A stretch of DNA of 64,000 nucleotides, from assembly GCA_958009085.1 (NCBI GenBank), contig OY253669.1, positions 620,001 through 684,000 on the forward strand. Reading direction: 5' to 3'. Numbering within the stretch: position 1 is the stretch's first letter; every line of letters starts with the position of its first letter. The DNA is from Protoeuglena noctilucae. Taxonomy: Eukaryota. Position numbers and translations under genes: made by a program. This document shows positions 1,721-63,766 of this stretch, piece by piece. The notes beneath the pieces are model-generated. The model had not been told where the DNA came from. It searched no databases and saw only the letters and a program-made list of their open reading frames with translations.

Positions 1721-3893
1721 TCATCCGCACTTCATCAGTGTCGATGCCACCTTGTCTGTGAGGTCCTTCAGCGCCACTGCCTGGGGACTGCCGGCGGGAG
1801 GTCGCCCCTTGCCCTTGGCCATCGCCGCCAGGGCTCCTTTGGCCTTGGCCAGCATGTCCGAAACTGCGAAGGCGACTCAACAGTACGCAGGGCGTCACAC
1901 AATGTCTGGCTCCAGTGGCCCCACGAGCAAAGGCCGCCCGCAGAGGGCCTCACCCGACACCCCGCCCTTGTCCTTGAGGGCGCACATCTTCTTGAGGGGC
2001 GCTGCAGGCACCAGCAGCGACACGAGGTAAAGCCCCGACAGCCCCGCCTCCGCGTCCGCCTTGGCCCCCCAGTCCCCCCGGACGACGCGGTCCGCGCCAC
2101 CCGCAACTTGCATGGCCAGGTAGTGCTGCAGGCGCAGGCGGCGACACGCGGTTGCATGCCACTGCAGCCGGCCCGGGAGACTGAAGCGCACCCTCCCACA
2201 CGCACCACCGCGCATCGGCCGTGTTTGTCCCGCGCTCCGAGCTTGAGCCCCATCCCGACCAGCATGCTCATGACCTCCGTGTGCCCCGACGCCGCCGCAT
2301 AGTGCACAGCTGTGCGCCCAAACGCGTCCGCCTGCCCCACGTCGGCACCCGCGTCCTGCAGCGACTCCAGGACGTCCCCGTGGCCGTGGGCCGCCGCCAT
2401 GTGCGCCGCGCACTGCCCGTGAGTGCTCGCGAAGAAGTCCCTCGCAGTTCGGGCCTGCGGGCGGGTCAGACAAAGCGGTTACAGGCCACGGGCACTGCGC
2501 CACGGCAGGTGTTCCGTCCCCCCCCTGCTCGCCGTGAGTTCCTTGATGCCGACCTCCGCCACCTGCGCATCTGTTCGCGCGTAGTTGAGACCCTGCGGAG
2601 TGCCTGCCTTGACCATGGCCTCCTTGACTGCCAACAGTGCCTGTCGGCGGCCCCGCAGGCCACTGGGGAAGGACAGGGCCTTGCATCAAAGGGCCACACT
2701 TTATCTCAGTGCCACGTCCACATATCTCTCAAGGCCATGCCTCTCTCACCTCTTTGCAAGGACGAACAGGTGTTCTTCCGGCGCTCCACCCCCATTCCCC
2801 AGCCGTGCTAGCAGCCCCGGGACAGCCCGCCATATGAGAGCCCCTGCGGTCACCAGGGCCGCGAGGGCCGCGAGCGGCAATGCCGCTGCCCTGGCTGCCC
2901 CCCCCACAGCCCCCATCGCCTGTGCAGCCATGCTGGGGCCGGACGGGGCGGGGCGGGACTTGCGAGTAGGAGGGGGCTTGGGCGACGGTGGACGCGGCAC
3001 AGGTGTGATGGGAGTTGGGATGGTGGGTGCGGAGCTCCGGGACTCTGCCTCAAGGGGCGGCTTCACGGGATGCACGGGCGATGGTGCACCTGTTCGGTCC
3101 GAGGTCTTGCCGCTTTGGTCTGGCCTACCAGCGTTCCTGCGAAATCGACAGCGAAGCAGTTGTAGGTGCATGTCCGGAAGGCAGAGGACGCCAGCGTACA
3201 CAGGAGACAGTCACCCAGATGCGCCTATCTCGACCCGCCCCGTCCCCGTCCTCCTCGAGAGATTCCCCCAGTCGGGCGCAGGCATGGGACCCCCAATCCA
3301 CAGAGATCGTACAGCGTGCGAGGGAGGCGCCGGGAGCGCATTTGATGGTGCTGGACGCGGTGGAACCCTATAGCTACCGTTCACCAGCCGATGGGCCGCG
3401 TGAGGCTCGTCATGTACCGGCCCTGTCCCCTCGCATTGCTCGACTTCACTTCGCGACAGCCACGGATGCATATACAAGCTAAAACCCGACGTTGTTAGCT
3501 GGCAGCCACTGGCAGTGGGGCAAGTGATCTCTGGGTGATCCCACGCACGTTCCCCTACAGCATATCGAACCGGGAAGCGTCGCGACTGAGCTGTTGCCGC
3601 TCGCGAGGCTTTTGCGGTCGGTGCCGGACGTCGCCCCCGCGCTCTGCTCGCTATCTGCACAGCAATTGCAGTGGGGTTGCCCTTTGTGAGCTTTTTTGCA
3701 CGCTGAGCGTCCCATGGCGCTCGACCTCTTCGGCCGCGCCGACCCTCTGGGGTCGACGCTGCTGGACCGGGTCCACAAGGGCACGCGCCAGGCAGGGTGA
3801 GGCGTCCTTGCCTGCCAACGTACCTGCTCCATGCGCTCTCGCTGCGGCGTTGGCACTGCGCACGCTCTGGGACACGCTCTCCTCTTCAGCCAT
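1721..3893 (-). CDS. Ankyrin-repeat protein with a probable single transmembrane segment (multi-exon)
   Basis: Ankyrin-like repeats GQCAAHMAAAHGHGDVLESLQDAGADVGQADAFGRTAVHYAAASGHTEVMSMLV (~2230-2450). Hydrophobic stretch ALPLAALAALVTAGALIW (~2830-2890). Last exon VSDMLAKAKG...LMKCG ends at TGA 1721. The 5' exons are uncertain. Confidence 0.7.
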
Positions 3894-3984
3894 GTCCTGA
3901 CATGTCGTCCCTTCCTCTCGTCACAAATTGCCGAGATGAGCCTCTCGCAATCAGTTCGAGGCTTTTTTCTTCAGCGATTTGCAC

Positions 3985-5880
3985 ATGCGGCTCGCTTCTG
4001 CCGACGTAGAGGCCCCGCATCTCGCCCCGGGAGACAGGTATCAGGCTGGAGGCTGACGGCTTGGTTCGCTCCTAATGCGCAGGAACAAGTCGTCCCTGGC
4101 CTTCCGGAATGACATCGGGATTCCAGGATACACGGGGTACATTCCCACTTCCAATTGCGTGCCCGTCGACATCAAGGGAGGGAATCGGTGAGACGCCGCT
4201 CTCGGCACACTGCCGCGCCCGCCTGCGCAGGCGGCCCGACGCGCCTGCTCCGCTCCACCCGGCCGCAGTCATGAAGGCAAGGTGCCGACCACTGGGCAGA
4301 CCTCCCACCTGGCGCGCACGCTCCCGGGGACCTCCGCCCACTGCTCGGTCTATCGCGCCACATTCAAGGGGGATACGGGCGACGGGCCTGGGTCCCTGCG
4401 GGCAGGGGGGGGCTACTGGATCAACACGCGGTCCAAGGGGCCTAAGGCGAGACCAGGACAGGGCGAGGGGGGAGCCCATGATGCCCATGGGTGCTGTTGG
4501 CGGCTCACAAGGTCCCCTGCACCTGCACCCAGGTCCCCCTCAGCGCTCTGACGACGTACCGTGCCGAGATTCTCCGCCACGACGAGAAGGAGCGCTTGCT
4601 GCGGACCACTCTGGGGGCGACGAGCACCACCTCGGACTACGCCGTGGGAAGGAGGGAGGGGGAGCGCGCACAGGGTGCGTGGTGGCAGGGCGGGATGACT
4701 GCTGCTGGCTGCTAGCCATGTGCTGCCTGTCTCCAGCCCCGGTGTCGGGATCCACACCCGCCGCGCTGGCGCTCGCCCCTCTTCATGCAGTGACGGATCT
4801 CGGGCGCTCGCTGACGGGAGCGCTGGACGTCTCGACTCCCCAGACGGGCTACGTCACGTCCTATGGTTCCATGGTCGTCAAGAACCCCCTCGTTGGGGGG
4901 TCCGCGGCAGCTGGCAAGCCCCTCACAGCCCCGGCCGCGCCCGAGGGGCGACCCAAAGTGGTGCGTAGGGAGGCCGGTGAACCCAGCCCGTGGTGGGGGA
5001 CAGCGCCACTGGCCGCGCCGCGCTCCCCTCGTCGATGTCCGCCCCCTTCGCCCCACTGGCAGGCGCCCCGTGGCATCCCCGCCCCCTTTGACGGCCTCAC
5101 CACCTACAAGCGCTGCCACGGGGACTACCTGGAGGACCCCGTGGCGAGGCTCCCGGAGGGCAAGGCGGACTTCACGGCGCGGGGGTCCACGGCGGAGCTC
5201 AGCTTCGGCACGACGCGCGGGACTCGCCATATTCCGGGATACGCCGGCCACGTCGCGGCGCACCCCTCAAATCCCGCGGGCGACGCTCCCCGCACCTACG
5301 CCAAGGAGGACATGTGCAAGGGGCCAGCCTTGGACCAGTACCTGCGCGGCCACCTCCCGGGATACGGGGGGTTCCGCCCTCAGGTGGGGGGTGGGGAGAT
5401 GTGACCTGGTTGCCGGGTGCGACCTCAGTCAGCGAGACGCACGAGCATCCCGGTGCCTGTCCACGCAGGCGCCCGGGAACATCAAGCTGGGCACAGACGA
5501 CGCGTCGCTGCGCCACACGACCCAGGGCGCGGCCGCCCTCTCTGTCCAGGCCCTGCCGGCCCCACGGCCCGACAAGCACAACTTCATCTCGTCCAACACC
5601 GGCACCATGTCCTTCTTCACCGGTGAGCCATGGCCAGCGAGGCCGATGCCCAGCGCTGTGCCCTCCGCGGTTGGGTGCAGAGGCACACACCTGAGACTGG
5701 GGCCAGAGATGGGGCCCATCCACCACCCCCCCGCTGCTGTGCAGGGGGTGGGATGTTCGTATCGGAGAATGGCAAGTCCAACGCGCAGCAGTACTTCATC
5801 CAGCTGAGGCCCCTGGAGGGCACCCCGGGGCTGTACGTCCCCTCCAAAACCACCGCTGCTGGGTACCGCTTCAACAAGTA
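3985..5880 (+). CDS. PYG-repeat flagellar microtubule inner protein (FAP129/FAP95-like)
   Basis: The spliced product has repeated IPGYTGYIP, HIPGYAGHV and LPGYGGFRP motifs, which are typical of axonemal microtubule inner proteins. The C-terminus SENGKSNAQQYFIQLRPLEG...RFNK ends at TAA 5878-5880. About 7 introns in consistent phase. The family assignment is from motif recall. Confidence 0.65.
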
Positions 5881-6089: not shown

Positions 6090-8885
6090 CTAGTGTGCCA
6101 GGTCAATGCGCGAGTAGAGGAGCCGGTTGGGTGTCTGCGGGCGTCAGGGCAGGCGCATCGATCCGCTGCCACTCCCGGCACCCCCCTGCCACCCTGCGCC
6201 CCTAAGCGACCCACCTGGGGCAGCATCAGAGGCGACGACAGCATGCCCTCCGTGGCCGCGTCGAGGATGGCGCGCTTGACGTCCTCCGGGCGGTCGCCTG
6301 GGCGGTCTCCCAGCCGCACCGCAGCCACGCCCGCCACGTGCGGCACGGCCATGCTCGTCCCGCTGGACCAGGCGTAGGCCGTGTTGGAGACCAGGGCACA
6401 CCTGCGCTGGCTCCGACGGGTGCCACTTTGCGGGGGAGTGGGTGAGCAATGCTATCCCACTGCGCTGCCTTGACCCGTCGACAGCAGCTGGACGGCACCT
6501 GGACGGTCCCCCGCACGCCGAGAAGACGTTGACGCTTGGTGCGAAGATGTCGACGCACTTGCCCGTGTTGGACCACTCGTAGATGCTCTCCGTCTGGCTG
6601 CCCGTCCCGTCCTGCGCCACCACCACGCTGCGCTGGAACTTGTCCTTCAAATCAGCACCCGCCACGGTGATGGCCTCTGGCACGTCCGCCGGCGCCACAT
6701 GGCACGCGTCCACACCCGAGTTGCCTGCGTCGGCCGAGACACACGGCTGCGCTGCTGCGCCCGTCGGGGGTAACCCTACCAGCGCGCGTCCCGTCAGCTC
6801 CCCGGCGCTTCACCTGACGCCACCACGACCGTCAGGCCGTGGTCCCGCACCAGCACGCGCACAGTGTCCTCCAGGGCTCGCGACCACCGCCCCACTTCGA
6901 TGCCCAGGCTGAGCGTCACGATGGCGGGCTTGGCGTGGTGGTGCACCACCCAGTCCAGCCCCTTCACGACATCGCTGCAGCCGCAGTGAAACGCGCCAGG
7001 TGACGCTGCCCTCCGGCTGCCGCACCTGCACCTGCCACCGCTCCCCACCATCTCGCCTGATCTGCCCTGCCCCCTGACAGTCCAGCACCCGCACGCTCAC
7101 GGCCCGCGCCTCCTTGGCCACGCCCACCGTGCGCCCGATGGCCGTGCCCGCGATGTGCGTGCCGTGGCCGTCGCAGTCCGATGCGTCCTCGTCCCCATCC
7201 ACAAAGTCGTGGCCTGCCAGGCAATGGAAGGGCGAGGGAGGGTGCTGCGTAAGGTAAAGGGGCAGACCTCGGCGCATGCACAGCACGAACGAGGTTCACC
7301 TGACGTGACGCGGCTCGGCCCTCCCCACCACGGCTGGAACTCCTGGTGCGTCATATTCACTCCACTGTCCACTGCAAAAAGGGCGAGCCACGCGCTTGGC
7401 GTATCATGGGTGCGCGGTTGCACCTTTTATGAACCGCCCAAGCAAGTGCGCTTCGCACATCTCATGCATCTGCATGAGTTGTGCCTGACACGCCCAGTCC
7501 TCTCGTGAACCCCTCCAAGGAAAGCATCCCAGGCGCCCTCACCAAAGTAGATGGTGGCCCCTGCGCCCGTCCCCGTGGACTCGTCGCCGCTGTAGCGAAA
7601 CTCGGCATCGAGGGGCAGGCCTCTCTGATCGATGCGGTCGAGGTTCCACATGGCCGGGTGCAGGTGCTGCACCTTGAGCATCGCGCGCAGGTCATCATAT
7701 GCCTGCAGCGGGGAGGACACGGGCTGGCCGCCCACCAGGGGAATGCCGTTCGCGTCCGTGTCCGACGCCGGGGCTGGGCCGAGTGGCGGGAGTGGAGAGG
7801 GGCCTGGCCGGGGAGTATACGCAGGGGCTGGGCGTGCGGGAGGGGTGTCCCCTCTGCGCAAGAGAGCCCCCACGGCTCGCAGGGACGTCCACTGCGTCGG
7901 GGTCGGCAGCCCCGTGCTCGTGTTGAGCCCGGGTGGCTGCGTCGAAGGCGGGGCACCGCTTGCAGGGCTGGCAGGGGTGGGGGTGGCCCCGCCTGGTGAC
8001 TGCGGGGCACGAAGCGGTGGGGTGCAGTGGGGTGTGCATGCTTGTCCAAGCCGCACAAAAGCGCCTATATGCCGCACGCGAGCGATATACCCCTCAAGTC
8101 AGCCTCACTTGCGCTGGGGGCCCCGGAATGAGGCCCAGGAGCTTCCTCTTCTGCGCGGCAGAGAGGCCCGCCAGGAATCGTGGAGGCAGGTCGTCCTGAG
8201 GCGAGCGGTGCAGCGCATAGCTAGGGCGCGGACCCTCCGCCTTCATGACTCGCGCGTCCTGCGGGCGCAGGAGGGACCCGTGAGCCCCGTCGCCCTGAGC
8301 AGAAGCATGTGCAGGCAGGGTGCGGTGGGCTCCCCGCGGCTGCAGTCGAAAAAAGCACCTGCTCCACGTAGGCGATACCGTTGGGAAGGCAATCGTCCAG
8401 AGCCAAGAGGTCCGCCGCCGAAAAGGCCCCGGCGAGTCCCGGAACTGCCCCCGAGTAGACATGCCGACACCGCGGGCCTACCCAGCATGCGTCCGACATA
8501 GGCGGGCGCCATGCGATACGTTTGCTTCGGAATTCCTCCCAAGTGGGCGCGCAAACGGCATACGCGAAGGGGATCCAGCGGAAGTCGCGGAAAATGACCA
8601 GCGCTTCGTACGGCACGCCGAGCGCCACGGAGACCACCTGCGCGAGAGACCGCGGTGAAAACGTGCGCTTCGAAACCTATGTATGCTTCTGGCATGTGAA
8701 GTTGGGGACTTCAGCCACAGAGGGAGCGCAGCGGCCAGTCGCAGATAGCAGCAATCCAGCATACAGGAAGAAGCGGGCCATCGCCCGCGCGCGAGGCCCT
8801 TCCATCCATCGCGGGCACTTTTTGAACTCACGATGACCAGCTCGAGACAGCTACAACCGAGCAGTGCCGAAAGGGCGCTCCGCAT
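6090..8885 (-). CDS. Secreted subtilisin-like serine protease (S8, proteinase K-like) with an I9-like prodomain
   Basis: Catalytic triad motifs VDSG (Asp), DGHGTHIAG (His) and SGTSMAVPHVAG (Ser), plus WNLDRIDQR and the terminal exon TPNRLLYSRIDLAH*. Signal peptide-like MRSALSALLGCSCLELVI|VVSVALG. Confidence 0.92.
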
Positions 8886-9202: not shown

Positions 9203-11028
9203 TCACGGTCTCTTGGGCACGGGCATCGGCACACTATGGTCTGCGCACGCACCATGGACCCCACTCGTCCCGGCTCCACCCCCCTTGGATGTGCCCCCCC
9301 GGCGCTCCGGCCCCGCCCCCTGCTCCCACACCTCCCCCCCGTGCCCCTGCCCCTGTGTTTGCCCCTGTGCCTGCCCCTGCCCCTGCCCCTGCCCCTGCCC
9401 CTGCCCCGCCCCCTCGCCCGCCTTGATCCCCTCCGCCGGCGGCGCCTTGAGCACTGACTCGTGCAGCCGGAAGCCAAACACCCGGGGCACGTACTTCTCC
9501 TGCGCGCAAGGCTAGAGTCGCAGGGGCTAAGCCACACGGCGCGTCGCCGCAAAAGGCGGCGCATGCGCCACCGGCAAGCGTCGCACCATCGGGGGTGGCG
9601 GGCGGAGCGAGGGGTAGGTCATGAGGAAGAGGTGGGGGAACGTGGTGCCAAAGTAGGCGCCGTCGACCGACCCCTGGAATCGAGATCGCGGGTAGAACAG
9701 GTCCTGGCACTTGGGGCAGTAGAGCTTCACTGCGGGGAGGGCCGACGCGAGGGCGTGGGTGAGGCACGGAGTCGGCGCAGGTCCCGCGGCATGGCGCCCT
9801 ACCCGGCGCCGAGCCCTGCGCCCAGTCACCCGTGGACGTGTGCGGGATGTCGCTCTGCCCAACCGGCAGGCATGGCTGGCCCCCACAGAGCACCCGGGGG
9901 CACCGTCCAAACTGCACCGCCTTGTACTTCTCCAGCATACACGCCAGGCCCCGCGTGGTGAGGACGAAGCGCGCATGGATGAGGCCGTAGAGCATCTCCG
10001 CCGCAGTCTCAATGATCTGCGGGGACCGACGGCGCGTTGAATGCCAAAAGGCTTTCCAGGGGCGTGAATGCAAGGCAGCCCAGCATGCCCCGTCTCCCTC
10101 GCCTCGTGCTGCTCGTCGGTCAGGGAGTCCGCGTGCTGGGACTCCAAATCCAGGATCGTGTCCAGCGCGTAGTCATAGTACGGGACCATCATGGAGAGGC
10201 CTGACAGGTTGAAGTCGTCCTGAAAAGGAGGAACAGAGGCAGGATGTTTCGTCACCTGCCGCCTCAGCGGCCTCGGACCCGCGCGACACGCGCGACACGG
10301 CCGTTACCTGGATGTAGTCATCGTCCACCTCGCAGAACAGCTCGTTCCCCTTCAAAGAGCAGAACCACTGGATCCAGGACACGTCCCCTGCGTGGGAGGC
10401 CCAGGGAACCACGCGCTTGAAGCGCGGAGAAAGATCAGAGGCCACACAGCGAGTCGCTGTCCGTCGGGGTCCTGGCGCCAGCCAAGGCGCTTGCGGGGCG
10501 CGGGTGGCAGGGCCGAAAAGCTCGTCCTGAAACTCGCCGCGCTGGTCTGCCCCCACAGCGCCCCGGCAGGGGAACTCCGTGAAGGCACGGAATGAAAGAG
10601 TCCCAGCGCAGTCCAGGAACGGCGCGCTGCCTGCCCACGCGACGGGAAATGGTCGAGAGGCCCCGCCGATCGTGCAGCTCTCGAAGCGATGGCACGGAGA
10701 GTTATGAGGCGGGATGCGCGGGGCAGAGTGACTGACAGGAACGACGGCTCCGCTAGAGCGGTGCCCATCGATCGCTGCCCGGGCCAGGAGCAAAGCACAG
10801 GCCCATGCCGCCCCGTGCTGTTTGCAACGGAGCTCCCACGGCCAAATCGATAGAGGGGGAGCGCATGCAGCTGCCAGATACAGCTGCAGCGGGCGCTGTC
10901 GCCCCGAAACGTGGGCGCAAGCAGCGTCTGCGGCCTGGGAGGACACCTTCGGACCCCGAGTCGCCCTCCGACCCCTCGCTTCCCGACTCCTCGGAAATGT
11001 CTTCTGACCATGCATCTTTGTCGCCCAT
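9203..11028 (-). CDS. CKB: Casein kinase II regulatory (beta) subunit
   Basis: [48 protein letters not shown], zinc motif FGRCPRVLC...[24 protein letters not shown] and [11 protein letters not shown]. Acidic first exon [19 protein letters not shown]. Confidence 0.95.
9340..9412 (-). repeat. Coding hexanucleotide microsatellite, (CCCCTG)n on +, encoding a Gly-Gln tract in the CK2 beta tail
   Basis: Tandem gcccct/cccctg units translate on the minus strand as [19 protein letters not shown]. Confidence 0.85.
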
Positions 11029-11675: not shown

Positions 11676-13162
11676 ATGCTGGATCCCGACACGAGTGAGC
11701 AGTGCAGCTGCTCGCTGGCCGTCGCGTGCTGTGGTCTCTGGTTCAACAACCTGCCTTCATCCCGCAGGCACCCGAGCTTCGACTCGGTCCTGAGCCATGC
11801 AGCTGATGCCGTCGTCATCCCCGCCGGACCGAACTACAACTATCTGCAGCGCAACCTCGCCCTCGAGCTGGTTCGGTGAGCCGGCACGTTGCAGCATGCG
11901 CCTCCTGGGCTCCTGTCTGTGCGCGTATCTGCCATCCGTCGCCGCCACTCCCCGCAGTGTCACGGAGGCCGCTGCTCTTGGCGCTGGATGGTGGGTCGGC
12001 AAGGGCGACAAGAACGGAGCGGATCGAGCTGCGGTGGACAACATGAGGAAAACCCTGCGGGGTGTCTCAATGGATGGGACGGTGGTGATTGGGGAGGGCG
12101 AGAAAGACCAGGCGCCGATGCTCTACAGGCGCGAGGGCGCAAGCGGCTAGTTGTTTTGTGGGCAGAGCGTTCCCGTGTGCGTGCCATGCCAGCTCTCGCC
12201 CGCCGTGCGCAGGGGCGAGCACGTGGGCGACGGCGCCGCGCATTCCCCGATGGTGGACGTCGCCCTCGATCCGATCGACGGCACCATGCTCGTGGCCAAG
12301 GGGGGTGACGGGGCCATCGCCGTCATCGCCGTCGCCGAGCGGGGAGCCCTCTTCGACCCAGGTCCCGCCTTCTACATGGAGAAGCTGGCCGTGGGCCCGC
12401 AGGTGCCCCCCTCGTCCGTGTCGGTCGACTACCCCGTGGTGCGCAACCTGCGGGCGGTGGCCGACGCCTTGCACAAGCCGGTTGAGGAGGTTACGGTGGT
12501 GGTGCTCGACCGGCCCCGGCACGAGGGGCTCATCCAGGAGGTGAGGGCGGCGCGCGACAACGAGAGCGGTCGAGGTTGGAATGGCTCGCTTCCGGCGAGT
12601 TAGTATGCCAAGGCGCCCTGTGCTCCAGATCCGCCGCGCCGGGGCGCGCATCAAGCTCATTTCGGACGGCGACGTGGCGGCTGCCATCGAAGTGGCCAAG
12701 CCGCTCAGCCCCGTCGACGTGCTCATGGGCGTGGGGGGCACGCCTGAGGGCGTGGTGGCGGCCTGCGCCCTCAAGTGCATGGGAGGGCACATCGAGGGGC
12801 GCCTGTGGCCGCGGTCGGAGGACGAGCGCCGGGCGTGGGAGGAGCAGGGCTTTGACCTGGGCAACATCATGGGCACGACCGACCTGTGCCGCGGCGAGCG
12901 CGTCTTCTTCGCCGCCACGGGGATCACCGGTGAGGATGCTGTGGGGGAGCCACGGGGTGGAGACCTGCTGTTTCCACTGAGGTGCGCGAGAGCCACTCCC
13001 CTTCCCCGCGCAGATGGCGACCTGGTGGAGGGGGTGCGCTATTTGTCGGGAGGCGCCATCACGCACTCCGTTGTCATGCGCTCCGAGTCGGGCACGGTGC
13101 GCTGGATTGAGACCCACCACCGGTGGGGGGCGCGCAAGAGTGCGCAGGGAGTGTCTGCTTGA
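11676..13162 (+). CDS. glpX: Class II fructose-1,6-bisphosphatase (GlpX family)
   Basis: [91 protein letters not shown] and [16 protein letters not shown]. Five introns. Stop TGA at 13160-13162. The start MLDPDT is inferred from splice phase. Confidence 0.93.
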
Positions 13163-17234: not shown

Positions 17235-17922
17235 CGGGGTCGCCCCGCCCCCGCCCAGTTGGATGCTGCCGTTGACCCGCAGACGTCGGGACTCCGCGGG
17301 GATGCACGGTGCCTGGGGCGGAGAGAAAAAGGGCTTCTTTAAAACGTCGCACCGGTGAGATGTCAATGGGCATTGCGGATTTGCATTTTCTGCCGTTCAT
17401 GTGCCCGCACTTCGGAACCCATGTGCGCTGCGGTGCGTGGGAAACTCAGGCTGCTGCCACGCCATACTGCGATACGAAATACTATCTATATTGCGGCAGC
17501 GCACCGCGGCGATATAGAGCGCCTGCAGCAATGTTAAGGTGGCAGTTGCAGCCGCTCACCAGGCGCGATGAGGACGAACCTGCTGGTCCAGCTCGACCCC
17601 TGGAAATGGCGAATGTCGACACTCGTGGCCGAGGAGGCCTCGTTTGACGCGCCGGCGCAGCGTCAGAAAGCAGGTGGGATCTGGCAGCTTCGACTCCCTC
17701 GCCCATGGAGCCTTGGCTGCGGGCCCTTTCGAAGGCTTTCCAATCGCAGACACCCCAGCTGCGCGAATGTATCAAAACAAACGCTTCTGCTAAGCCCCAA
17801 GCGCTGCGCCACCCTTTTCGCGCAATTCCTTTCCAACCCCTGCCCGCCGCAATCTCAGCAGCTCCGTGGTGGTGAACGTCGCGCGTCTCCCATCGGGACC
17901 CCATCGAGGACCCGATGCGGGG

Positions 17923-29282: not shown

Positions 29283-30875
<1,593 letters not shown>

Positions 30876-39792: not shown

Positions 39793-40003
39793 CAACTGGA
39801 CGGGGTTGCGCTTGCGCCAATGGCTTTGGTATGACGAGGCCAGGTGCTTCACAGGAAAAAGTGAGGGCGGCCGGCATGGGCAGCCGGGCAATGACTGCCG
39901 CCAGTTGAGAGGAACACGGGCGACCTACAACGGGATGCGCTAGGAAGCTGCTCACGCGGACAACGTGCTTTGTTTGAAACCCTGTCGACTCGGTGACCGT
40001 GCT

Positions 40004-41197: not shown

Positions 41198-41607
41198 GTC
41201 CTCCCCGACGCGCGGCAGTTGGCGAAGCGGCTGGGGTACCCGATGAGATTTTGGGAAAAGATCTAAATCTGGGCCGCGCCGACTTGTCCGCGGTACGATC
41301 TGTGGTGCTGTTGCTACCACCGTTGCAAAACGTAGCAAATCGCCCATCCTCAGCTTCCCCTGTTCAGTCGTTCCTGGGTTGACTTTTCACTGGCACCATT
41401 GCGCCAGTTCGCGTTCGCTGCGGTGTGCGTCTTCCCCGTTTCGCTGCGGATGTCACTGCAGCGTGATATCCCCTCGGCTTCGCACATGCTTCCACGCCGT
41501 GATTCCCACAACCAGCGTGGCAAGGCTCAGGGGTGGCCGCCACGTGCCCCCACCCGAGCGCAATGCACCCCCGGCACATTCCCCTTTTCCCCCGTTGACA
41601 AGTCTCC

Positions 41608-45740: not shown

Positions 45741-45831
45741 CCCATGCCCACTGCAGGCCCAGCCGCCTCGCAGGTACCACGTTCCCTTTTCCGCATGCGC
45801 GCCGCGGGATGTTTGTTGAAATGCAATCGCG

Positions 45832-47047: not shown

Positions 47048-47277
47048 GGTGCCGGCACCTGGACAGTGGGAATGGCAGTGATGACGCGCGCGCAGAGTGC
47101 GCGCGAGGAACGCAAAAGACGAGAGATTTCTTTCTGGCGCGCTGCAGCACAAGGCAGCGCGTTTTGAGCGGCACGAGCTGCATCACTTCACGTGTGCGCT
47201 CGATTCCTCGCGTGCGCTGCTTGAACACCTGCAATCCCCCCGCGCGGCGGGCAGGGGCTTGCCTGCGACGGGCTACC

Positions 47278-52723: not shown

Positions 52724-52850
52724 AACGGCGGCATGTCGGCAGGTATTTATCAAGTTCAGAATCACTGTGAATCGCAGATGTCTCGGAACACCTAACGCGT
52801 CGTCTTTCCAAAGCCGACGGCAAGGCATGAGCGACGATCACATGGCCTTC

Positions 52851-55736
52851 TCAAATGTTTGACGAAGTTCCCAACCCCACTGCGAGTCGTGCCCTGCGCA
52901 GCAGAAACAGGGGGGTCCCTCGTTCCCGTCCCGATCCATAGCGCTTCACGCCGCGCTACTGCTGTGGCATTCGACACTCATACACTCCACCTCAAGCCGC
53001 ACTCACTTGCACCGTTTGTCGAGCTCATTGGCGAAGTCGACGTACGCCTTGGCCTTCTTGGCGTTGCCCTGGAAAGTCTTGGGCGACTCGTCATAGAGGG
53101 CCGCCATCATGCGCAGCACCGCCGGCACGGCACGGAGCGCCACCTCGTCCGCCATGCGGTTCCCCAAGGCCTCGCGGTCCTGGGTGTCCACGCCTGCGGG
53201 CGCGGTCGCGAGGCACAGCTGGCGCACCACGCGCGTCGGTGGCAAGGGACGACCGGACAGCTGCGGGAGACGAGGTCACACATCCCAGCCTCGCACCGAC
53301 GGTGGACGCCATCCTCCCGACGACGGCCTCGATCGCGTCCGTCTTGGCCGCCACGCGCTGCACCGCCGCCATGGTGGCCGCGTGGAAGCGCCTCATCTCC
53401 TCGTACAGCCCCCCGATGCCCTCCTCGAGCCTCGTGGACGCCATGGCCGGGTGCGCCGACTGCAGGCCGTCCAGCTTCTTCTTGAGCTCCTCCATGTTGT
53501 ACTGCAGCCCCAGCTCCAGCGCCTTGTCCCGCATCACCAGGCCCTCGATGCCCTTGATCCCCGCCACCGCCTTCTCGATCCCCGCCAGGCGCGCGTGCAC
53601 CGACGTCACGTTCTCCAGAATGTCCTGCGGACAGCAACGGAGGGCACACCTCCCGCTCGTATCGCTCGCCTTCCTCAGCCACAGCCACGGCGACACCGCA
53701 AGGGGCCGGGCCTGACCGGCACACTACCAGGCATCCAGAGCCCCGACAGCGCCAACTGCAGTGATCCCGCACGACGGCTGCCCTTCTGCTGCCTAGTTGC
53801 TCTTCCACACACCCACCTGGAGCTTCGCTGGCTCGAACTTGGCCACCTGCTGCGTCCACTGGGCGCTCATGTCGTGGACGGCCTCCAGGTGCCGCTGGTA
53901 CCCCGCGAGCGTGCCGCTGAGCCCGCGGACGGCCCCGACGCCCGCGCTGATCTCCGTGGCGATGCGGTGCGTGTCCTGCGCCTTCTCCGTCAGGCCCCGC
54001 AGCAGACCCTTCACCGTGTCCACCTTGGGACCCAGGCCGACGTCCTCGGCCGTCACGGCGCGCTCCACGCCCCGCAGCCGCTCCCCGTACGTCGCGAGGT
54101 CCTCCAGGGAACGGCTCCACTCCTCCTTCATCGCCAGGTGCATCCCGTGCAAGGCCATGATCTCCTGGTGCATGCTCTCCACCTGCCTCTGCCACTGCTC
54201 CATGGGGCTGCGGGGACGCAGAGACAGGGCGGTGCTGTTATCGGATTAGCTAGGTGAAACTCAAAGGAGCGAGTGGGGACCACCCTTGGCTTGTGGCATC
54301 ACACGGCCACCGCCTCGATCGCTGCGCTGGCGGGCGCACCGGATGCGGCGCTTGAGCTCCACGATTTCCGCCGCCTGCTCCGTGATCTCCTTCTGCCGCG
54401 CGCTGATCTCTAGCAGCTGCGCCTCTGCGGCACGTCGTGGACGGATGCGACAAACGTTGGGCCACCCGCACGCTGCCAAGGACGCAACCGGCATGCCATA
54501 GGTGCCGGGCATCTGCATGCGCGACGTGGCGGTGTCACCTAGCGACCGCGCGATGGTCTCGAAGCGCTTTGGATCCATGTTACGCAACCGGTCCGCCGCC
54601 TGCACCACGTTCTCCTGGATGACATGCAGCGGGAGCGTGCTCCGCGCGACCTGCGGGCGCAGCGACCTGTCGCGCTCGACCCCGACGCGACGGCATGGCG
54701 CACCCGGTCGAGCACGGCTGGCCCTCGCCTGCTGCATGTCGTCCCGGATGCCTTCGAGCGTTTGCAGGCCCTGGAGGATGTCGTCCAGTGAGTAGTAGAT
54801 CTGCGAGGCTTTCTCCGTCAGCGCATCCCCTTTCTGGTCCAAGCCTTTCCAGGACTGCGCCAGCGCGCGGGCCTCCTCGCTGAGGGCGCTGAGGGGCTCG
54901 ACGCGCACAACCAGCTCGCGCACGCGCTCGCACAGGGTCGAGACCGCCTCCATCACCCCCGCGATATCTTCCTCCTCCGTCTGGATGGCCCCGTAACCGA
55001 CCAGGTCGATTGGCCCGCGCAGGCCGGACCACGACGCGTCATGCCGGGCACCCCGCGGCGGTGTCGCGGCCGCGCCCAAGCCCCCCGGGGAGAGACTGCT
55101 CAGCTCCTGCACACGAAGGACACAGGTGAAGGCTCGCGAGCGTGCCGGGACGCGGCCCAGCGGCGCATACGTTCGACTGTTAACAAGCGGCCGGGGGAGG
55201 CGCGGAGAGAACAAGCGCACGCAGCCCGGACAGTGTGCGAAAGCATGCGCAGTAAGATGCCTGCCGAGAGCAGCCACGAGGGCGCGACGCGAGGCCCACC
55301 TGAGCGCCGAGGCCCCTGCTTCTCTCCATGGCACTGCCCTAGCCCACCCGTCGCCGCGGGGTCGGAGAGCGTGAATGTCAGCAGATGAGCCGATTGCCTC
55401 GCGTAACGGCCTCCTCTGGAAACACACACTCCGCAGCAAAACGTCTCTGCGGGGCTCCGCCAGCTTTTGAGATGCGTAGCAATGCCTCGGGAGATATCCG
55501 CCATAAGACGTGCGCGCATCAAACTGCAGTTGCCCTTGGCGCGGACGCGTTACTGCAATACGAAGGCCGACGACCGCAGTTCCCTGCACATGATCTGACG
55601 CTACGGTGAATGTCTCGCTGCTCAATGGTGGGGCGGGTGGCGGGTCGCGTTCTGTTAAGTCGACCACGAAGGCACCGACGTCATCGATTGAGGATTGCGC
55701 GCGGCTGCCGTTGTCTCCGCAGGCATCTCCACACAT
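52851..55736 (-). CDS. Unknown coiled-coil-rich protein
   Basis: Phase-consistent exons such as AEAQLLEISARQKEITEQAAEIVELKRRI, MEQWQRQVESMHQEI and DILENVTSVHARLAGIEK. Last exon ARLAVGLGTSSNI*. The start is inferred. Confidence 0.7.
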
Positions 55737-55780
55737 TGCCACACTCTGGACGCGAGGTGGTGGTCGCGCATATTGACCCC

Positions 55781-58195
55781 ATGAGACAAATTCACTCGAT
55801 AGCGTGCCATGCGAGCCACGGCAGGGCATCGGGGCCGGTACCTGCGCGCGGCTCGCAGTGCGTGGCAGCCGCACATTCGGTCACGGCCAGCCCAAAAACA
55901 GAGAGCATCCTAGGCCGCCTAGGTCGCGATGCCTCGGGTGCAGGAGGAGCAGGGGGCTCAACGACGCTGGATGGCCTGCGAGCAGCTGATCGCGGTGAGC
56001 CAATGGGCTTGTGGCCCCGTCCGCCACGCACGCGTCGCGCGACGGCCTGCGCGCCACGCTCCTGCATGACCCGTCCATGCAGCGTGGCAGGCGATGCGGA
56101 CAGGCCCTGGGGCCCCACCAGCTGAGTTCGTGCGTGGGAGGGACGGCATGCTGGGACAGCGCCCCGGCTACGACGTGGTGGTGTGCGGGGGCACCCTGGG
56201 GATCTTCCTCGCCGCGGCGCTGCAGGCGCGGGGCCTGCGCGTGTGCGTTGTGGAGCGTGGCCCGCTGCGGGGCCGGGAACAGGAGTGGAACATCAGCCGG
56301 GCAGAGCTGCGGGAGCTGTGGGAATGCGGGGTCGTGGACCGCCAAGCGGCCGAGGGGGCCATCCGCAGCGAATTCAACCCCAACCGAGTGGCATTCCACG
56401 AGAGGTGCGAGCTGTGGACGACCGACATCCTGAACATCGGCGTGTCTCCGGAGGTGCTGGTGGCGGAGGCGCGCAGGGCTTTTGAGGAGGCGGGAGGGGT
56501 TGTGAGGGAGAGCACGGCTGTGGCGGGAGTCGACGTCTTTGCCGATGGCGTGGCCGTGAACGTGGCGGGCGGGGAGAATCGCGTGATGGGGGAGCTCCTC
56601 ATCGACTGCATGGGCCACGGGAGCCCCATCGTCCGCCAGTACAGGTCTGTTGTGCTAATGCTTGCGCTCCCTGGTACACACGCTGCCGGCACGTACGACC
56701 GAGCGAGCCCAGTCGCGCATCGACGTGCTTGCAGGGGCACCCGGAAGCCCGACGGCGTGTGCATGGTCGTGGGGACCGTGGCGAGCGGCTTTCAGAACAA
56801 CCAGACCAGCGACGTCATCGCCACCGTTTCGGACGCGCAACCGCCTGGCGACACAGTGGCGGATGCCCAGGTCTTTTGGGAGGCCTTCCCCGCCGGGTCG
56901 GGCCCCACGGACCGTACGACGTACATGTTCACTTACATGGACGCCGAGGCCCACCGTCACTCCTTGGAGGAGTTCTTTGATCTGTACTGGGACCTCATGC
57001 CCAGGTACCAGGGCGTCACATTGGAGGACATCGAGGTGACCTGGGGGATGCTTAGGCGGGCTGGCAGTCAGTGGGGCGGAGCGGTGCATAGGTCGATGTT
57101 GGCATCGAGGGTGCGCGTGCATGCAGGTGAAGCGGGCGCTGTTCGGGGTCTTCCCCACCTTCCGCGATTCGCCCCTGCGGGCTGCCCACGACCGGGTCTT
57201 GCAAGTGGGTGACGCCTCGGGCATCCAGTCGCCCCTTTCCTTCGGGGGATTCGGTGCACTACTGCGGTGAGTGCCATGGTCGGGGATGCAAGGGTCACAG
57301 TGCTACACCAGCCCCATGGTATGGTACACCAGCGTACTTAGAGAGAGTGGGTTCGTTATGATCCACGCAGGCACCTACCGCGCACGGCCACGGCAGTCGA
57401 CGAGGCCGTGCGGTGGAAGTGCACGGACCGTGCGTCCCTGGGGCTCATAAACGCCTACAACCCCGGTCTCAGCGCCTCGTGGCTGTTCCAACGGTGAGGA
57501 GACGTGGAGCCAGTCAGCCAGTGCGCAGCTGTGAAGGGTACGCACTTGCACAGCCTCACCTGGAGCCAGTCAGCCAGTGCGCAGCTTTGAAAGGTGCGCA
57601 CCTGCACAGCCTCACCGTCGTACGGTGCTCCCCAACTCTGCACCGCAGGGCGATGTCCATTCGGAAAGGGCAGCGCCCCTCACCCGCCTTCGTCAATCGC
57701 CTCCTGGGCTCCAGCTTCGCGAGCATGCAGGGCCTGGGCGACCCAGTCCTCAGGCCCTTCCTGCAGGACGTCATTCAGTTCGACGGACTCACCCGCGCCC
57801 TCCTCTCTCAGGCGAGCACCGCCCAGCCTGGCCAGCCGCCCATGCAAGGAAAGGGCTGCTAGGGTCCTCATTGTGTTTGTCTCGCCCGCTAGCGGGGGGC
57901 TTGTGAGCATGAGTGCGCCGCACAGGACCACCCGTCAACCCTCGTGTCGCGGTCGCAGATGGCATCAGACCCACTGTTCATCCCCCAGATCCTCCTCCAC
58001 GTCGGCCCCGAGCCGCTGGCCGACTGGCTCCGGCACTACCTCGCGCTGGGGTCCTACACAGCCCTGGCGCGGGCAGCAGACGCCGTGAACGTGGCGGGCC
58101 TGGTAGAGCGCCTGCCCCCACGGCAGCGCTTCCGGTTGCGGCGTGCGGTGGAGGGGTGGCGGTACGGCGCGGGCCTCGACTTCTTCAAGGCCTAG
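55781..58195 (+). CDS. cruP: CruP-like FAD-dependent oxidoreductase (CruA/CruP lycopene-cyclase family)
   Basis: GAGGAGGSTT, YDVVVCGGTLGIFLAAAL, LRGREQEWNISR, IDCMGHGSPIVRQ, FWEAFPAGSG, RTTYMFTY, VGDASGIQSPLSFGGFG, PFLQDVIQF and WRYGAGLDF. Confidence 0.88.
57505..57616. repeat. Intronic 56-bp tandem duplication (2 copies)
   Basis: tggagccagtcagccagtgcgcagct...cacagcctcacc occurs at 57505-57560 and again at 57561-57616 with about 4 substitutions. Confidence 0.9.
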
Positions 58196-58242
58196 TGGAA
58201 AGGTCAGCGGTGAGGGCCATCATGGCGCATGGATCGCAGCAC

Positions 58243-58956
58243 TCAGATCTCTACATGCTCCGACTTCTCGGTCCAGTGCTCGTGGCTGTCGCACCACACG
58301 GGCGTCGAGCACCACTCGGTCTGCCCGCAGAGGAGGTCGTGCATGTCCTGGTTGAGCACGGCCTGCGGTGCGACAGCGGGGCAGCACTCAGGGAATCGGC
58401 GGGCGGCGGCAGTTTAACCGTCGCCTTGGCGCCTGCAGCGTATGGCACCTGAGGCAACGGGCAATTCTCGCCGCCCACGTTGTAATCCTGGTGCGGCTCC
58501 TGTGCGGTCTGCGGGCAGCGCAGGAGAGCTCTGGGAGGGCCGGCGCGGTCTAACAAACCAACGTGGTCCCTGGTCCCTGTTGGCGGGCGCGCTGCCGAGC
58601 CCCTTGCGCGGCCTCGTCTTGCCTTATGAACCTCCTTTTTTTCCTGCTTTTGGGCCTGACGCTGGTGAGTCTTGTTGTCGCCCTTCGCCTGCGGAACGAA
58701 TGAAACTGCGACAAGCGCGCAAACGCGCCGCAGCGCCGGCGCCCGGGCGCGGCATTCTATCTTGCGTGGCATCCATGCATGATAAAGTCAGATCTGCTCA
58801 AATCTGGGGAGACAAGGCCAGAGACGAACGGGCGTACGCGAACGACAGCGCGGCGGTTGTGCTCACCGCGAGCGCGACCCTGCGCGAAGCGCGCTGCTTC
58901 CTGGCCCCCGCAGCCACCCCGGCGACCCTAGGGACAGAAACGCGTGACGCGAACAT
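58243..58956 (-). CDS. Small plastid-targeted orphan protein (~111 aa, Cys/His/Trp-rich C-terminus)
   Basis: Four phase-0 exons: MFASRVSVPRVAGVAAGARKQRASRRVALA | AKGDNKTHQRQAQKQEKKEVHK | TAQEPHQDYNVGGENCPLPQ | AVLNQDMHDLLCGQTEWCSTPVWCDSHEHWTEKSEHVEI*. Confidence 0.7.
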
Positions 58957-59112
58957 CCCTGCTCCGGCTTTCAGCGACGTGGGACGCGGTTGGCTTGTTG
59001 AGTCAGCGCGGTCAGCACAGACTCTCAATGCAACAAGAAAGCCAGTGCGCATCAGCCATGCGTTCTCGCGAACAAACTAGCGGCTCTGCCCTTCTTCAAC
59101 GCGGAACCACGC

Positions 59113-60182
59113 TCACACGTGCCAGTGTGTCGGCCCCCGCCCCAGCAATCCGTCAGCCGGCCGCTCGGCTAGCTCGCCGCCCGGCAGCATCTCCCACGCC
59201 CGATCTACCAAAGGGGCCAACTCGCAGATGTCGTGGCTGACGACCAGGAGCGTGCAGGAGCCCTTGAGCGAGCGCAGAAGGCGCACCTGCAAGGAGCCGC
59301 AGCCAGACCCTCTCAGCCGCAGCCAGTGGCGCAACAGCACAGCCCAAGCCGCCGCAAGCGCCTCACCAGCTCCGCCCGCGCGACCCAGTCCAGCCCGGCG
59401 AGTGGCTCGTCCATCAACAGCACCCCTGGGCCCCGGACCAGCTGCGTGGCCAGAGCGAGCCGCCGCTTGTACCCGTCGCTCAGCGTGCGCGGGTCCGTGC
59501 TGAGCGGGTACCGGTTCAGATCGAACCCCGTGTCGCTCAGCGCCTGCGGGTGCCACGCGAGCCCTCAGCGACGCTGCCTCCGGCGCCCCACGTGCCCCTG
59601 CACCGCCTCGGCCTCGCCTGCAGCAGCCTCTGCGTCAGGACTTGACGCGTAAACAGGTCCACCGTCCTGGGCCACGTCAGCGTCAGCTCGGCCTGGATCG
59701 AGTCTCCGATGAAGTGCCTCTCCGGGAACTGAAAGACCAGACCCGCACGAGCACTGCGCTCGCTCGGGCGCATGTGCGCCGGGGCCACCTCGTCCGGCCG
59801 GGCGATCGCGATGGACCCATCTGCGCGGACGTCGGGCGCACGCGCACCTCACGCCCACCACGGCCACGCGGCCTCGCATGCGAGCGTCCTGCCGCCCCTC
59901 ACCCGTGACCTCCGTGAGCCCCGCGAGGATCTGCAGCAGTGTGCTCTTCCCCGAGCCACTCTTGCCGTAGATCAGCCCCAACGTGTTGGGCTCCAGGTCA
60001 AAGTCGACCTTCTGCAGGAGGGGGCGGGGGAGGCCCGGGGGGCAGTAGCCCACCCCTCGCGCCCGCACGCCCATCGCTGGGCGGTTCCTCTGCTGCGCCT
60101 CGGCGTCCTTGATCAGCTCCCGCAGCGTCTCAAACACGCTCCGCACGGCCGCGGCTGCCTCTCCTCCCGGCAGCTCGGCCAT
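59113..60182 (-). CDS. ABCI11: Soluble ABC ATPase, ABCI11/NAP14-like (CbiO/ECF-type)
   Basis: Walker A GKSGSGKST, Q-loop GLVFQFPERHF, signature LSDGYKRRLALA, Walker B LLMDEPLAGLDW and H-loop VVSHD. The true start may lie further upstream. Confidence 0.85.
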
Positions 60183-61030: not shown

Positions 61031-61318
61031 GGGCCCGGCCTCTCAGCACACGACATCGGAGCGACTTCCTCTGGGGGCTTCGCGCGGCAGGCACGGCAAT
61101 CACCTGGCCCCGCGTCGACCTGCGCAAGTTGCAAGCCGTGTCACGGTCCGTCAGCGAAAGCTGGCGTCTGCGACACCACAAATTACCACCGTCGAGAGCG
61201 AGATTGCATGCTTGTCGCGCACAGGCCTTATTTGGCGCGCCATCGAGTTTCCTTGGCCTGGCTACGAGTGCCGCGCCCGTGTCCCCGCCGATGCGCCGCT
61301 AGCGGCCCGATTCAAAGC

Positions 61319-63766
61319 ATGGTCGAGAGGGTACTAGGCGTTCGAGCCCATGGAGCGCCCGGGCGAGCGCTCTATGCTTGCCGGCGTGCTCAGCCGGCCT
61401 GGGTGCGTGGGGCCCTCACACCCCGCCTCAGTGCAGCGAGGAGCGCGGCGCGCGAGGCGGCGACCGAGACGGATAGTCAGGTCTCTGGAAGAGAAACAAG
61501 CGACTTTGGGCACCCTATGACAGCTGAGGACTTCCGGAGGCACGTGGCACGCCCACGGCCGCAACCTGGTGGTGTCGTTGCAGCCTGTCACGTGCCCCAG
61601 GGTAGCCTGCGCACGCAGGCGCGCGCACGAGGTGGTGGACTGGATCGCGGATTACTACGAGGGCCTCCCCACGCGCGAGCCCGTCCTGAGCCAGGTGTCT
61701 CCGGGATCCATCATGGCGCAGCTGCCCAGGGAATGCCCCGAGGAGGGAGAGGCATGGGATGCGGTTATGTCAGACCTGGACGCCATCATCATGCCAGGCG
61801 AGGCGACGGCAGAGAGGAGGTCTTATTCTTTACGCTGACGGCGTGAGGGCGTACGTGCCATCTGTCACCGCCCTCTGCCTCGCAGGGGTGACGCACTGGC
61901 AGCACCCCTCCTTCTTCGGGTACTTTCCCGCCACCTCCTCCTTCCCTGGCATGCTGGGCGACATGCTCTCGGGCGCATTGAACGTCATCGGTTTCAATTG
62001 GCTTGCGTCCCCGGCAGCGACGGAGCTCGAGCAATCGGTCCTCGACTGGCTAGCGCAACTCATCGGACTCCCCGACGCCTTCCTCAGCCGGTCTGGCAAG
62101 GGCGGGGGCGTCATCCAGGGCACGGCATCAGAGGCGGCACTGGTGGCACTTCTGGCGGCCCGGGCACGCATCACGGGGGCGCCTCCCGCCAGTCCGGGCG
62201 CCCAGGCCGACGCAGGTGCGTGGCGACATGCGCGTGTGTGGCGAGTGAAATGTCCTTGTGGTTAGTTAGTGTTCTGTACGCAGTGGCCGGCCAGAAGCTC
62301 AGTGCTAAATTCTCTGCTGCAGGGTCTCCCGGTGACGAGTGGCGTCTCGTGGCCTACGCCAGCGACCAGGCCCACTCGTGCGTGCGCAAGGCGTGCATGG
62401 TCGCCGGGGTGCGCCACTTCCGTGCCGTGCACACGAGGGCAGAGGACCACCACTGCATGAGGTGAGGCCCCGGCTAAGGGCGGCGCATGTGCATGGTGAT
62501 GGAAGGCACGCAGGTGACACGATCGCATGGTGGCAAGCCACAGCAGCAGCGCTCTGCACCCACCGTTGCCTGCCTTGTATCCATGGGACCCATAGGTCTT
62601 GTGCCACGTGCTCCCTGCAGGGCAGATGACCTCGCGGCGGCCGTGAAGGAGGACCTGGAGCGGGGCCTGATCCCTGCGTTTGTTTGTGCATCACTGGGTA
62701 CCACGAGCAGCGCTGCCGTGGACGACATTGCGGGGCTGGCACGCGTGGCGCAGGTGAGGCTGGGAGAGACTCGGCATCGCGATTGCAACACTCTGGTGCC
62801 CGTTGGCTGACCATCTGACATCCCACCCCGGTCTATGACCTCCCCAGGAGCATGGGATGTGGCTGCATGTGGACGCTGCCTATGCCGGGGCTGCCATGGT
62901 GCTGCCGGAGATGCGGCACCATATGAAGGGGGTGGAGCTCGCCGACAGCTTCGATTTCAACCCGCACAAATGGCTGCTGACCAACTTCGACTGCTCGGCG
63001 CTCTTCGTGCGGGACGCGCAGCCGCTGGTCCGGGCCCTGACCCTCACCCCGGCCTTCCTGCAGAACGGGTGAAGCAGAAGATGCACACGTGGGGCCCATG
63101 GATTGCACATGGTCGTGGTGCAGTTGCCCGTGCATTGCACCACCGCTGTGAGCACCGTGCGGTGCTCTGGGCATGCATGGGCGCACTGCGGGTGTCCCCA
63201 ACTGCAACAACAGCGTCTCTGTCAATCTCCGCCCCAGTGCCACCGAGTCGGGTCTTGTGGTCGACTACAAGGACTGGCAGGTGCCTCTGGGCCGGCGCTT
63301 CCGGGCACTCAAGCTCTGGGCCGTCCTCCGGACGTACGGGGCGCGAGGCCTGCGCGACTTCATCCGAAGCCACGTGTCGCTGGCTCGCGAGTTCGAGTCA
63401 TGGGTGCAGGCCGATGCCCGATTCGAGGTCGCCGCCCCTGTCCACTTCTCCCTCGTGTGCTTCAGGTGAGGGCGGCAAAGGCAGAGGCGGTCACGCAAGG
63501 GCAGGGGCAAGAGCGCTTCTGCACGTGCACATGTCATGGCAGCAGCATCTGTGCCCATCTGTGCCCATCCCAGGCTGGTGGGGGCTGGTGACGACGCGAA
63601 CAGTCAGCTCCTGGACCGCATCAACGCCACGGGGAAGATGTACCTGACGCACACGGTACTGAACGGCAAGTACACGCTGCGCATGGCGATTGGCGGCAGC
63701 GCGACGCGGCGGGAGGACGTCGTGGCTGCTTGGGACTGCATCCGCAGCCAGGTCCCCAGCTCCTGA
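61319..63766 (+). CDS. Group II PLP-dependent aromatic amino-acid decarboxylase family member (predicted aldehyde synthase type)
   Basis: [77 protein letters not shown] lysine motif [14 protein letters not shown] and [19 protein letters not shown]. Confidence 0.93.

Follow-up and report, generated by a model that had tools for sequence, protein, structure and literature searches.

Frequent GC-AG introns, probably of the ordinary U2 type, in a 64-kb G+C-rich nuclear region of Protoeuglena noctilucae

The stretch analysed here (the window) comprises 64,000 nucleotides (nt) of Protoeuglena noctilucae, corresponding to positions 620,001 to 684,000 of contig OY253669.1 (assembly GCA_958009085.1), and the feature studied in it was the set of introns that begin with GC, instead of GT, at the 5' splice site (donor) and end in AG (GC-AG introns). 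The window is part of the nuclear genome of a eukaryote with a high intron density. Its G+C content was 67.8% (64 kb), and its coding exons displayed a strong three-base periodicity, with G+C contents of about 0.87 and 0.52 at the third and second codon positions (GC3 and GC2), respectively; in the gene models the coding sequences (CDS) were richer in G+C (0.70) than the introns (0.67). Genes were spaced at about 3 kb per gene and carried some 6-7 introns each, with a median intron length of about 100 nt. Among the products recognised were STT3, SmpB, casein kinase II beta, GlpX, a subtilase and a GGPP synthase, as well as a phosphoglycolate-phosphatase-like HAD protein, a queuine tRNA-ribosyltransferase, a PhzF-like protein, an ABC ATPase and an aromatic amino-acid decarboxylase. 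An initial annotation of the window had listed 27 GC donors on both strands, and a GC dinucleotide was found to start at each of the 27 coordinates on the strand given.

Gene structures were predicted with a two-strand dynamic programming parser that included a 3-periodic coding model, shadow-strand states and weight matrices for donors and acceptors; position +2 of the donor matrix was purposely left unscored, and four self-training rounds were carried out. The final parse contained 19 gene models with 131 introns, 88 with GT and 43 with GC donors. Twenty-four of the 27 listed sites were chosen by the parser; two of the three that it missed (41051 and 58622) were verified by RNA, and the third was 49962. 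Two GC calls of the parser that were not on the list (30250 and 10262) were contradicted by the continuity of Pfam profiles. Because of these contradicted calls and of the two RNA-verified misses, the list of the initial annotation looks more accurate than the ab initio parser.

When any base was allowed at +2 as a decoy control, the parser returned 134 introns, 81 with GT, 38 with GC, 11 with GG and 4 with GA donors, and scaling of the GG decoys by dinucleotide abundance suggested that about 17 of the ab initio GC calls may be spurious. The motif AGGCRAG was counted 49 times on the two strands, versus 24.76 +/- 4.93 expected from 100 dinucleotide-preserving shuffles, none of which reached 49 (0/100), and AGGTRAG was counted 28 times, versus 10.43 +/- 3.48 expected. 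The excess of AGGCRAG, about 24 copies, is near the number of listed sites that bear the motif (23). Some ab initio GC calls are the product of chance, yet the excess of GC donors is real.

The description in the initial annotation, that nearly all of these donors share an exonic AG followed by GC[G/A]AG, held for 23 of the 27 sites (AG/GC[G/A]AG, the slash marking the exon-intron junction). The four exceptions were 12129 (cag/GCGCGA), 20319 (ctg/GCGAGT), 61540 (gag/GCACGT) and 2532 (acg/GCGAGC). All 27 donors read GCGAG, GCAAG, GCGCG or GCACG, none of them had a U12-type /ATCC box, and all 27 modelled introns ended in CAG. Six sites were exact RNA joints and one coincided with an RNA contig end, seven had clear and three weak alignment support, ten were unverified, and none of the 27 was contradicted.

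The RNA came from environmental marine metatranscriptomes, not from the sequenced culture. The fraction of the window's words found was 0.20-0.52 in four marine metatranscriptome runs of one study, and all were found in four runs of one organism. Contigs of RNA runs X1 to X3 and of DNA run X5 were placed on positions 39650-59649, a region that contains 11 of the listed sites, and the best 15 of 46 joints were considered, the ambiguity of the cuts being resolved afterwards. Twelve of these 15 were RNA-contig joints absent from X5, and the other three, present in DNA run X5 only, were repeat artefacts. The 12 RNA joints were six GC-AG and six GT-AG, and all six GC-AG joints were on the list of the initial annotation. 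Three of them were on the minus strand at 40264-40353 (runs X2 and X3), 40474-40575 (gag/GCAAGT; X2) and 40972-41051 (cag/GCAAGC; X2, missed by the parser). Two more, also on the minus strand, were localised in the ABC ATPase gene at 58509-58622 (aag/GCAAGA; X2, missed by the parser) and 59544-59617 (X2), and the sixth was in the FAD-dependent oxidoreductase gene at 57812-57958 on the plus strand (X2), where the GC was also the best donor against homologues. These GC-AG introns are accurately spliced, and spliced reads at nearby GT donors, the contrary outcome named by the initial annotation, were seen at no site visible in the RNA.

The intron of the PhzF-like gene (46924-47023, minus strand), chosen by the parser, fits an X2 contig piece ending at 46922 (47 further letters), at most 1 nt from the acceptor, and the Pfam PhzC-PhzF match starts with the initial residue of the exon downstream. 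Another X2 contig ended at 43175, next to the listed donor 43176, which is uninformative alone, and no joint was found at 43176, 49522, 49962 or 54728 among the best 15 of 46. An unspliced X1 contig (40377-40833), with 0 differences from the genome, carried the same GC at the 40575 donor, so that GC is also present at this donor in the environmental population; across the 20 kb no letter differences were listed.

Three X1 contigs were colinear with the genome across introns (40377-40833, 48066-48844 and 51546-52370), which could reflect intron retention, unspliced pre-mRNA or DNA carry-over. In the large coiled-coil gene (48200-52650), joints of the DNA-run contigs skipped 1.4-4.4 kb (48211 to 52644 and 49402 to 50859) and RNA contigs had loose ends at 49404 and 49923. 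The cause looks to be assemblies tangled by internal repeats, not splicing.

Junctions were also evaluated by protein alignment. All G-N donors within +/-60 nt were combined with all AG acceptors within +/-130 nt that kept the frame open, and the resulting 90-residue junction peptides were scored against fetched homologues. This test recovered the RNA-verified junctions of the FAD-dependent oxidoreductase gene, with scores of 208.1 for the GC donor at 57812 versus 179.4 for the best GT, and of 224.0 for the GT donor at 57494 versus at most 204.6. In the STT3 gene (plus strand), the GC donor at 20319 with the acceptor at 20424 was the best combination both against six STT3 homologues (266.2 versus 241.5 for GT) and against a 76%-identical relative (290 versus 277), and the acceptor proposed by the parser (20364) was wrong. 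The GC donor of the second STT3 intron (21075-21151) was likewise the best one, with 261.5 versus 247.5 for GT against the STT3 homologues and 320 versus 306 against the close relative. Two further STT3 introns are putative: one (21921-22114), from the parse, lies in a non-conserved insert, and the other (23142-23243), also from the parse, lies at the C-terminus, where GC was marginally best against the close relative (305, versus 304 for a GG decoy and 296 for GT) and was not the best against distant homologues.

In the aromatic amino-acid decarboxylase gene (plus strand), GC was the best donor by a wide margin at 61798-61885 (255.2, versus 238.9 for the best decoy and 211.2 for GT), and the Pfam Pyridoxal_deC profile continued across the junction without a gap (1-32 and then 35 onward). 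Support was moderate for the other intron of this gene (61540-61618), which has a weak context and where GC was again the best donor against 13 homologues (108.5 versus 97.4 for GT). In the phosphoglycolate-phosphatase-like gene (plus strand), GC was weakly the best donor (165.6 versus 160.2 for GT) for the parsed intron at 32562-32647 (gag/GCAAGG), and the two introns upstream, at 32066-32143 and 32276-32357, are putative ones proposed by the parse.

Continuity of profiles or structures across the junction was found in five other genes. The Pfam FBPase_glpX match ended at 65, the last full codon before the weak-context intron of the GlpX fructose bisphosphatase (FBPase) gene (12129-12212, plus strand), and resumed at 67 after one split codon, thus being gapless. 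For the gene with an EMAP-like tRNA-binding domain (28151-28237, minus strand), the tRNA_bind profile was matched at 19-41 and then at 44-96, with the unmatched end residues filling 42-43. The exons flanking the intron of the queuine tRNA-ribosyltransferase gene (39494-39571, plus strand) corresponded to residues 298-348 and 352-392 of the QTRT1 chain 7b2i_C, and their unaligned ends filled 349-351, again with no gap. The exons on either side of the subtilase intron (6975-7056, minus strand), which was also in the parse, matched PDB entries 2b6n_A and 8c4z_B without a gap. In the casein kinase II beta gene (10017-10102, minus strand; also parsed), the CK_II_beta profile was nearly continuous (25-58 and then 63-122), to within about 2 residues.

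The initial annotation had regarded several donors as pinned by conserved motifs, and this stood for the two STT3 junctions INLIPL/HV (20319) and SEHQ/PP (21075) and for IMP/GVTHW of the decarboxylase (61798), all of them best donors. At DEQHE/IIE of casein kinase II beta the profile match was continuous to about 2 residues only, and FFQ/VDAFT of the PhzF-like protein is consistent with the RNA contig end and the start of the profile.

Ten sites had the parse or plausibility as their only clear support (2532, 4447, 21921, 23142, 32066, 32276, 43176, 49522, 49962 and 54728). Besides those of the STT3 and phosphoglycolate-phosphatase-like genes described above, they comprise putative introns taken from the ab initio parse in an ankyrin-repeat gene (2455-2532, minus strand; acg/GCGAGC), at 4447-4532 on the plus strand (aag/GCGAGA), in an adenylate/guanylate cyclase gene, where the putative intron is a long one (43176-43535, plus strand), and in coiled-coil genes at 49522-49597 on the plus strand and 54651-54728 on the minus strand. 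The remaining one, a putative intron of a coiled-coil gene at 49962-50078 (plus strand), was absent from the parse and is plausible from the flanking reading frames.

Some features of the genes and their models were noted besides. The tmRNA-binding protein SmpB (Pfam SmpB profile 19-106) is encoded in the nuclear DNA at 18040-18860, directly upstream of the STT3 gene (19450-23418) on the same strand; its N-terminus is transit-peptide-like, and the parser had fused the two genes into one. A 305-nt modelled intron of the queuine tRNA-ribosyltransferase gene (38200-38504) conceals an exon of about 30 codons (ITEEGVLF...IRVQ) that fills the Pfam TGT profile at 90-122, and both new donors look like GT. 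The start of GlpX lies well upstream of the ATG chosen by the parser, and the open frame 5' of 12070 matches FBPase_glpX 9-65 (11794-12128, plus strand); at least one further exon or intron is absent from the model on this side. Finally, at positions 23777-25563 a 39-nt unit is repeated in tandem 45.8 times (83% matches, no indels); the array is in frame as a 13-residue repeat, and its minus strand is an open frame of 633 codons with GC3 = 1.00. The parser joined the array to the gene with the tRNA-binding domain by way of long introns that are doubtful.

The listed sites amount to 27 of the 131 parsed introns (21%), and the raw parse gave a GC share of 43/131 (33%), which includes at least two false GC calls. 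In the RNA the share was 6/12, in a small sample picked as the best supported (best 15 of 46 joints), and counting by hand in ten genes supported by RNA or homology gave about 16 GC donors in 59. A fair statement is that GC-AG introns account for one fifth to one third of the introns in the window. The initial annotation had estimated about 20-25% of some 110-125 introns, and the range obtained here was about 21-33%. It had set its estimate against a frequency of around 1% in most eukaryotes; the published value is below 1% (PMC2490688), the share in the window being about 20-30 times higher.

Donors with independent support (15 GC and 23 GT) were compared by their matches to CAG/G.RAGT outside positions +1 and +2, that is, over seven positions. 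GC donors had on average 5.73 matches versus 4.87 for GT donors (Mann-Whitney, p = 1.6e-4). AG at -2/-1 was present in 14/15 GC versus 11/23 GT donors, RAG at +3 to +5 in 13/15 versus 15/23, and both together in 12/15 versus 7/23; in the RNA-only subset, AG plus RAG was found in 6/6 GC versus 3/6 GT donors. Outside +2 the donor consensus was the standard CAG/G.RAG. Acceptors were CAG in both classes, with an equal pyrimidine content (0.65), and the acceptor scoring of the parser favours such sites. The median length was 86 nt for GC-donor introns versus 105 nt for GT-donor introns. From the stronger flanking consensus at the GC donors it follows that C at +2 remains the weaker choice, compensated by its neighbours as in ordinary GC-AG introns, and a conventional U1/U6 read-out is favoured over a relaxed one.

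We consider it likely, on the strength of these results, that the introns are ordinary ones of the major (U2-type) spliceosome that carry a GC donor, that they account for roughly one intron in three to one in five in the window, and that a changed spliceosome is not required. Their exonic AG and the G or A, A and G of positions +3 to +5 agree with the sequence that would pair with the 5' end of the U1 small nuclear RNA (snRNA) and later with U6, as judged by the logos and by what is published on GC-AG introns, and the single C.A mismatch at +2 would be tolerated through the strong flanking positions. The high number of GC donors would most likely have arisen from a long-term GC-biased substitution or fixation pressure, which may replace T by C at +2 in donors whose flanking positions match the consensus closely enough. 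Such a pressure is a plausible driver because of the base composition and of the parallel cases in GC-rich algae. Several points weigh against this explanation. The rate comes from one 64-kb window and 12 RNA joints (from the best 15 of 46), and the G+C content of the introns themselves was alike in the two classes (0.685 with GC versus 0.677 with GT donors, p = 0.50), giving no signal of local GC pressure. The comparison of flanking positions is partly biased, in that GC donors were probably spotted in the initial annotation by their strong context and weak-context ones were perhaps under-sampled, and the unbiased RNA subset consists of only 6 versus 6 donors. There is also a small chance that the machinery is changed, with the U1, U6 or splice-site protein genes concerned lying outside the window; no snRNA was found in the 64 kb by an Rfam scan.

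A relaxed or divergent recognition of the 5' splice site, as proposed in the initial annotation, would involve a U1 variant pairing with C at +2, or an altered U6, U1C or PRP8, so that GC and GT would be read equally. We regard this as unlikely. It would accommodate a GC share (about 21-33%, or 6/12 RNA joints among the best 15 of 46) far above the less than 1% seen with the standard machinery in most eukaryotes (PMC2490688), and two supported donors in a weak context (12129, GCGCGA; 61540, GCACGT) would also fit it. However, stronger flanks at GC than at GT donors are not expected if C is read as well as T, the proposal is left without support by GC donors that lie closer to the U1-type consensus than the GT donors do (p = 1.6e-4), and the consensus outside +2 is the standard one. 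Moreover, similar or higher shares in E. huxleyi and in pelagophytes are attributed to G+C content, not to the machinery, in the respective reports (PMC4028052; bioRxiv 10.1101/2024.10.30.620910). In a lineage-specific form, in which a green-lineage alga would have independently come to use GC donors in at least a quarter of its introns through a change in the reading of +2 (such as a U1 5'-end variant or a U1C or PRP8 substitution), the idea is equally doubtful; if true, it would add to haptophytes and pelagophytes a third independent example, amenable to experiment, of a splice code drifting under extreme G+C content.

That the junctions were mis-modelled, the real donors being nearby GT dinucleotides, is very improbable. 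GC look-alikes are common in coding DNA of 68% G+C, where GCG and GAG codons abound, the 11 GG and 4 GA decoys among 134 introns imply that about 17 GC calls may be due to chance, at least two GC calls of the parser outside the list (30250 and 10262) were wrong by Pfam continuity, and the ten listed sites mentioned above are clearly supported by no more than parse or plausibility. Six sites are nevertheless exact RNA joints, seven more align clearly better or gaplessly with GC than with any GT alternative, and the excess of AGGCRAG over the shuffles is close to the number of motif-bearing sites. For at least 13 sites mis-modelling is thus refuted. It is even harder to credit that the RNA itself carries GT at these donors, through C-to-U editing of the pre-mRNA or in an expressed strain with T where the assembly has C. 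Spliced contigs cannot show the excised dinucleotide, and the RNA is environmental; on the other hand, the unspliced X1 contig (40377-40833) carries GC at 40575 with 0 differences, no letter differences were listed on 20 kb, and polymorphism at 27 separate donors is implausible. Ordinary U2-type splicing of GC donors stays as our preferred explanation.

The lineage looks green-algal and is probably neither that of Emiliania nor that of Prasinoderma. The best named relatives of three proteins, among the matches listed, were all from Viridiplantae: green algae for the FAD-dependent protein (about 50% identity), land-plant STT3A for an STT3 exon (about 53%) and Raphidocelis for an exon of the HAD protein (61%); no E. 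huxleyi or Prasinoderma protein was among the matches listed in the three protein searches. Further relatives of the window proteins were found at 58-76% identity, and in a quick single-gene tree the window grouped with a clade containing Pedinophyceae sp. YPF-701 (SH-aLRT 95). For SmpB and GGPP synthase, the N-termini predicted by models with uncertain 5' ends have a simple transit-peptide look and no signal peptide. The protein encoded at 15357-17465 on the minus strand contains a CCT motif (Pfam PF06203, E = 4.2e-05, one exon), a domain typical of green plants, in line with the green-lineage affinity seen elsewhere in the window. No rRNA or other lineage marker was present in the window. 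A metagenome scan with the STT3 exon gave 20 loci with 44-89% identity over the matched part (about 46-50% at full length, the higher values applying to short parts only), none of them close enough for a cross-species comparison of donors, and a protein-cluster search with STT3 returned prokaryotic STT3-like clusters only. In Prasinoderma coloniale the introns have a higher G+C content than the CDS (73.5% and 68.1%, respectively; PMC11884799), the reverse of the window (0.67 and 0.70). Pycnococcus provasolii, with 11,297 genes in 22.7 Mbp (PMC8209157), would be more gene-dense than the window at about 3 kb per gene; neither difference sets these algae apart rigorously. Our literature search, which stopped short of supplements and of most subscription journals, found no report of a high GC-AG share in a green alga or in Prasinoderma.

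The remark in the initial annotation that elevated GC donors are known from a few GC-rich algae agrees with the literature, which describes them for E. huxleyi, Aureococcus and Pelagomonas. For Emiliania (Gephyrocapsa) huxleyi, Feldmesser et al. 2014 (PMC4028052) give 56% of 241 curated junctions as GC-AG and 61-65% by RNA-seq, verified by reverse transcription PCR (RT-PCR), together with high intron retention; the Joint Genome Institute (JGI) models had 15% GC donors versus about 60% in transcripts. The two organisms are alike in being marine algae with genomes of about 65-68% G+C and many short introns per gene, in having common RNA-confirmed GC donors with the acceptor still AG, in showing unspliced transcripts and in the under-calling of GC donors ab initio. 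Gene finders that assume GT-AG would mis-annotate about 1 intron in 4 in this genome, as occurred in the first E. huxleyi gene set. In contrast, GC is the majority donor in E. huxleyi (56-65%) and a minority one here (about 21-33%, or 6/12 RNA joints among the best 15 of 46): the parse has 43 GC versus 88 GT donors, and the listed sites are 27 of about 131, so that a GC-majority splice code of the E. huxleyi type was not found. The lineage also looks different: E. huxleyi is a haptophyte, and the best named relatives of three window proteins are green plants or green algae.

In the pelagophytes Aureococcus anophagefferens and Pelagomonas calceolata, 14-17% of introns are predicted to be GC-AG, which has been attributed to genome G+C content (bioRxiv 10.1101/2024.10.30.620910). 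They are likewise GC-rich marine algae with a similar intron length (averages of 103-177 bp), but they have 0.2-0.9 introns per gene versus about 6-7 here, the share in the window is somewhat higher, and its proteins are green-affine. Another GC-rich and apparently green-lineage alga with a high GC-AG share strengthens a general idea, in which pressure from base composition may drive even the most conserved dinucleotide of the splice sites to the limit set by compensation at adjacent positions, and a further lineage becomes available for asking whether the spliceosome co-evolves. In animals and plants, according to Churbanov et al. 2008 (PMC2490688), GC-AG introns are a U2-type class of less than 1% in which the rest of the donor is nearer to the consensus. 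The introns described here resemble that rare class in having GC at +1/+2, a 3' AG and other donor positions nearer to the U1-complementary consensus than those of GT donors, and differ from it in a frequency 20-30 times higher; they represent a phenomenon of a known kind at an unusual frequency, in a lineage where it was probably undescribed.

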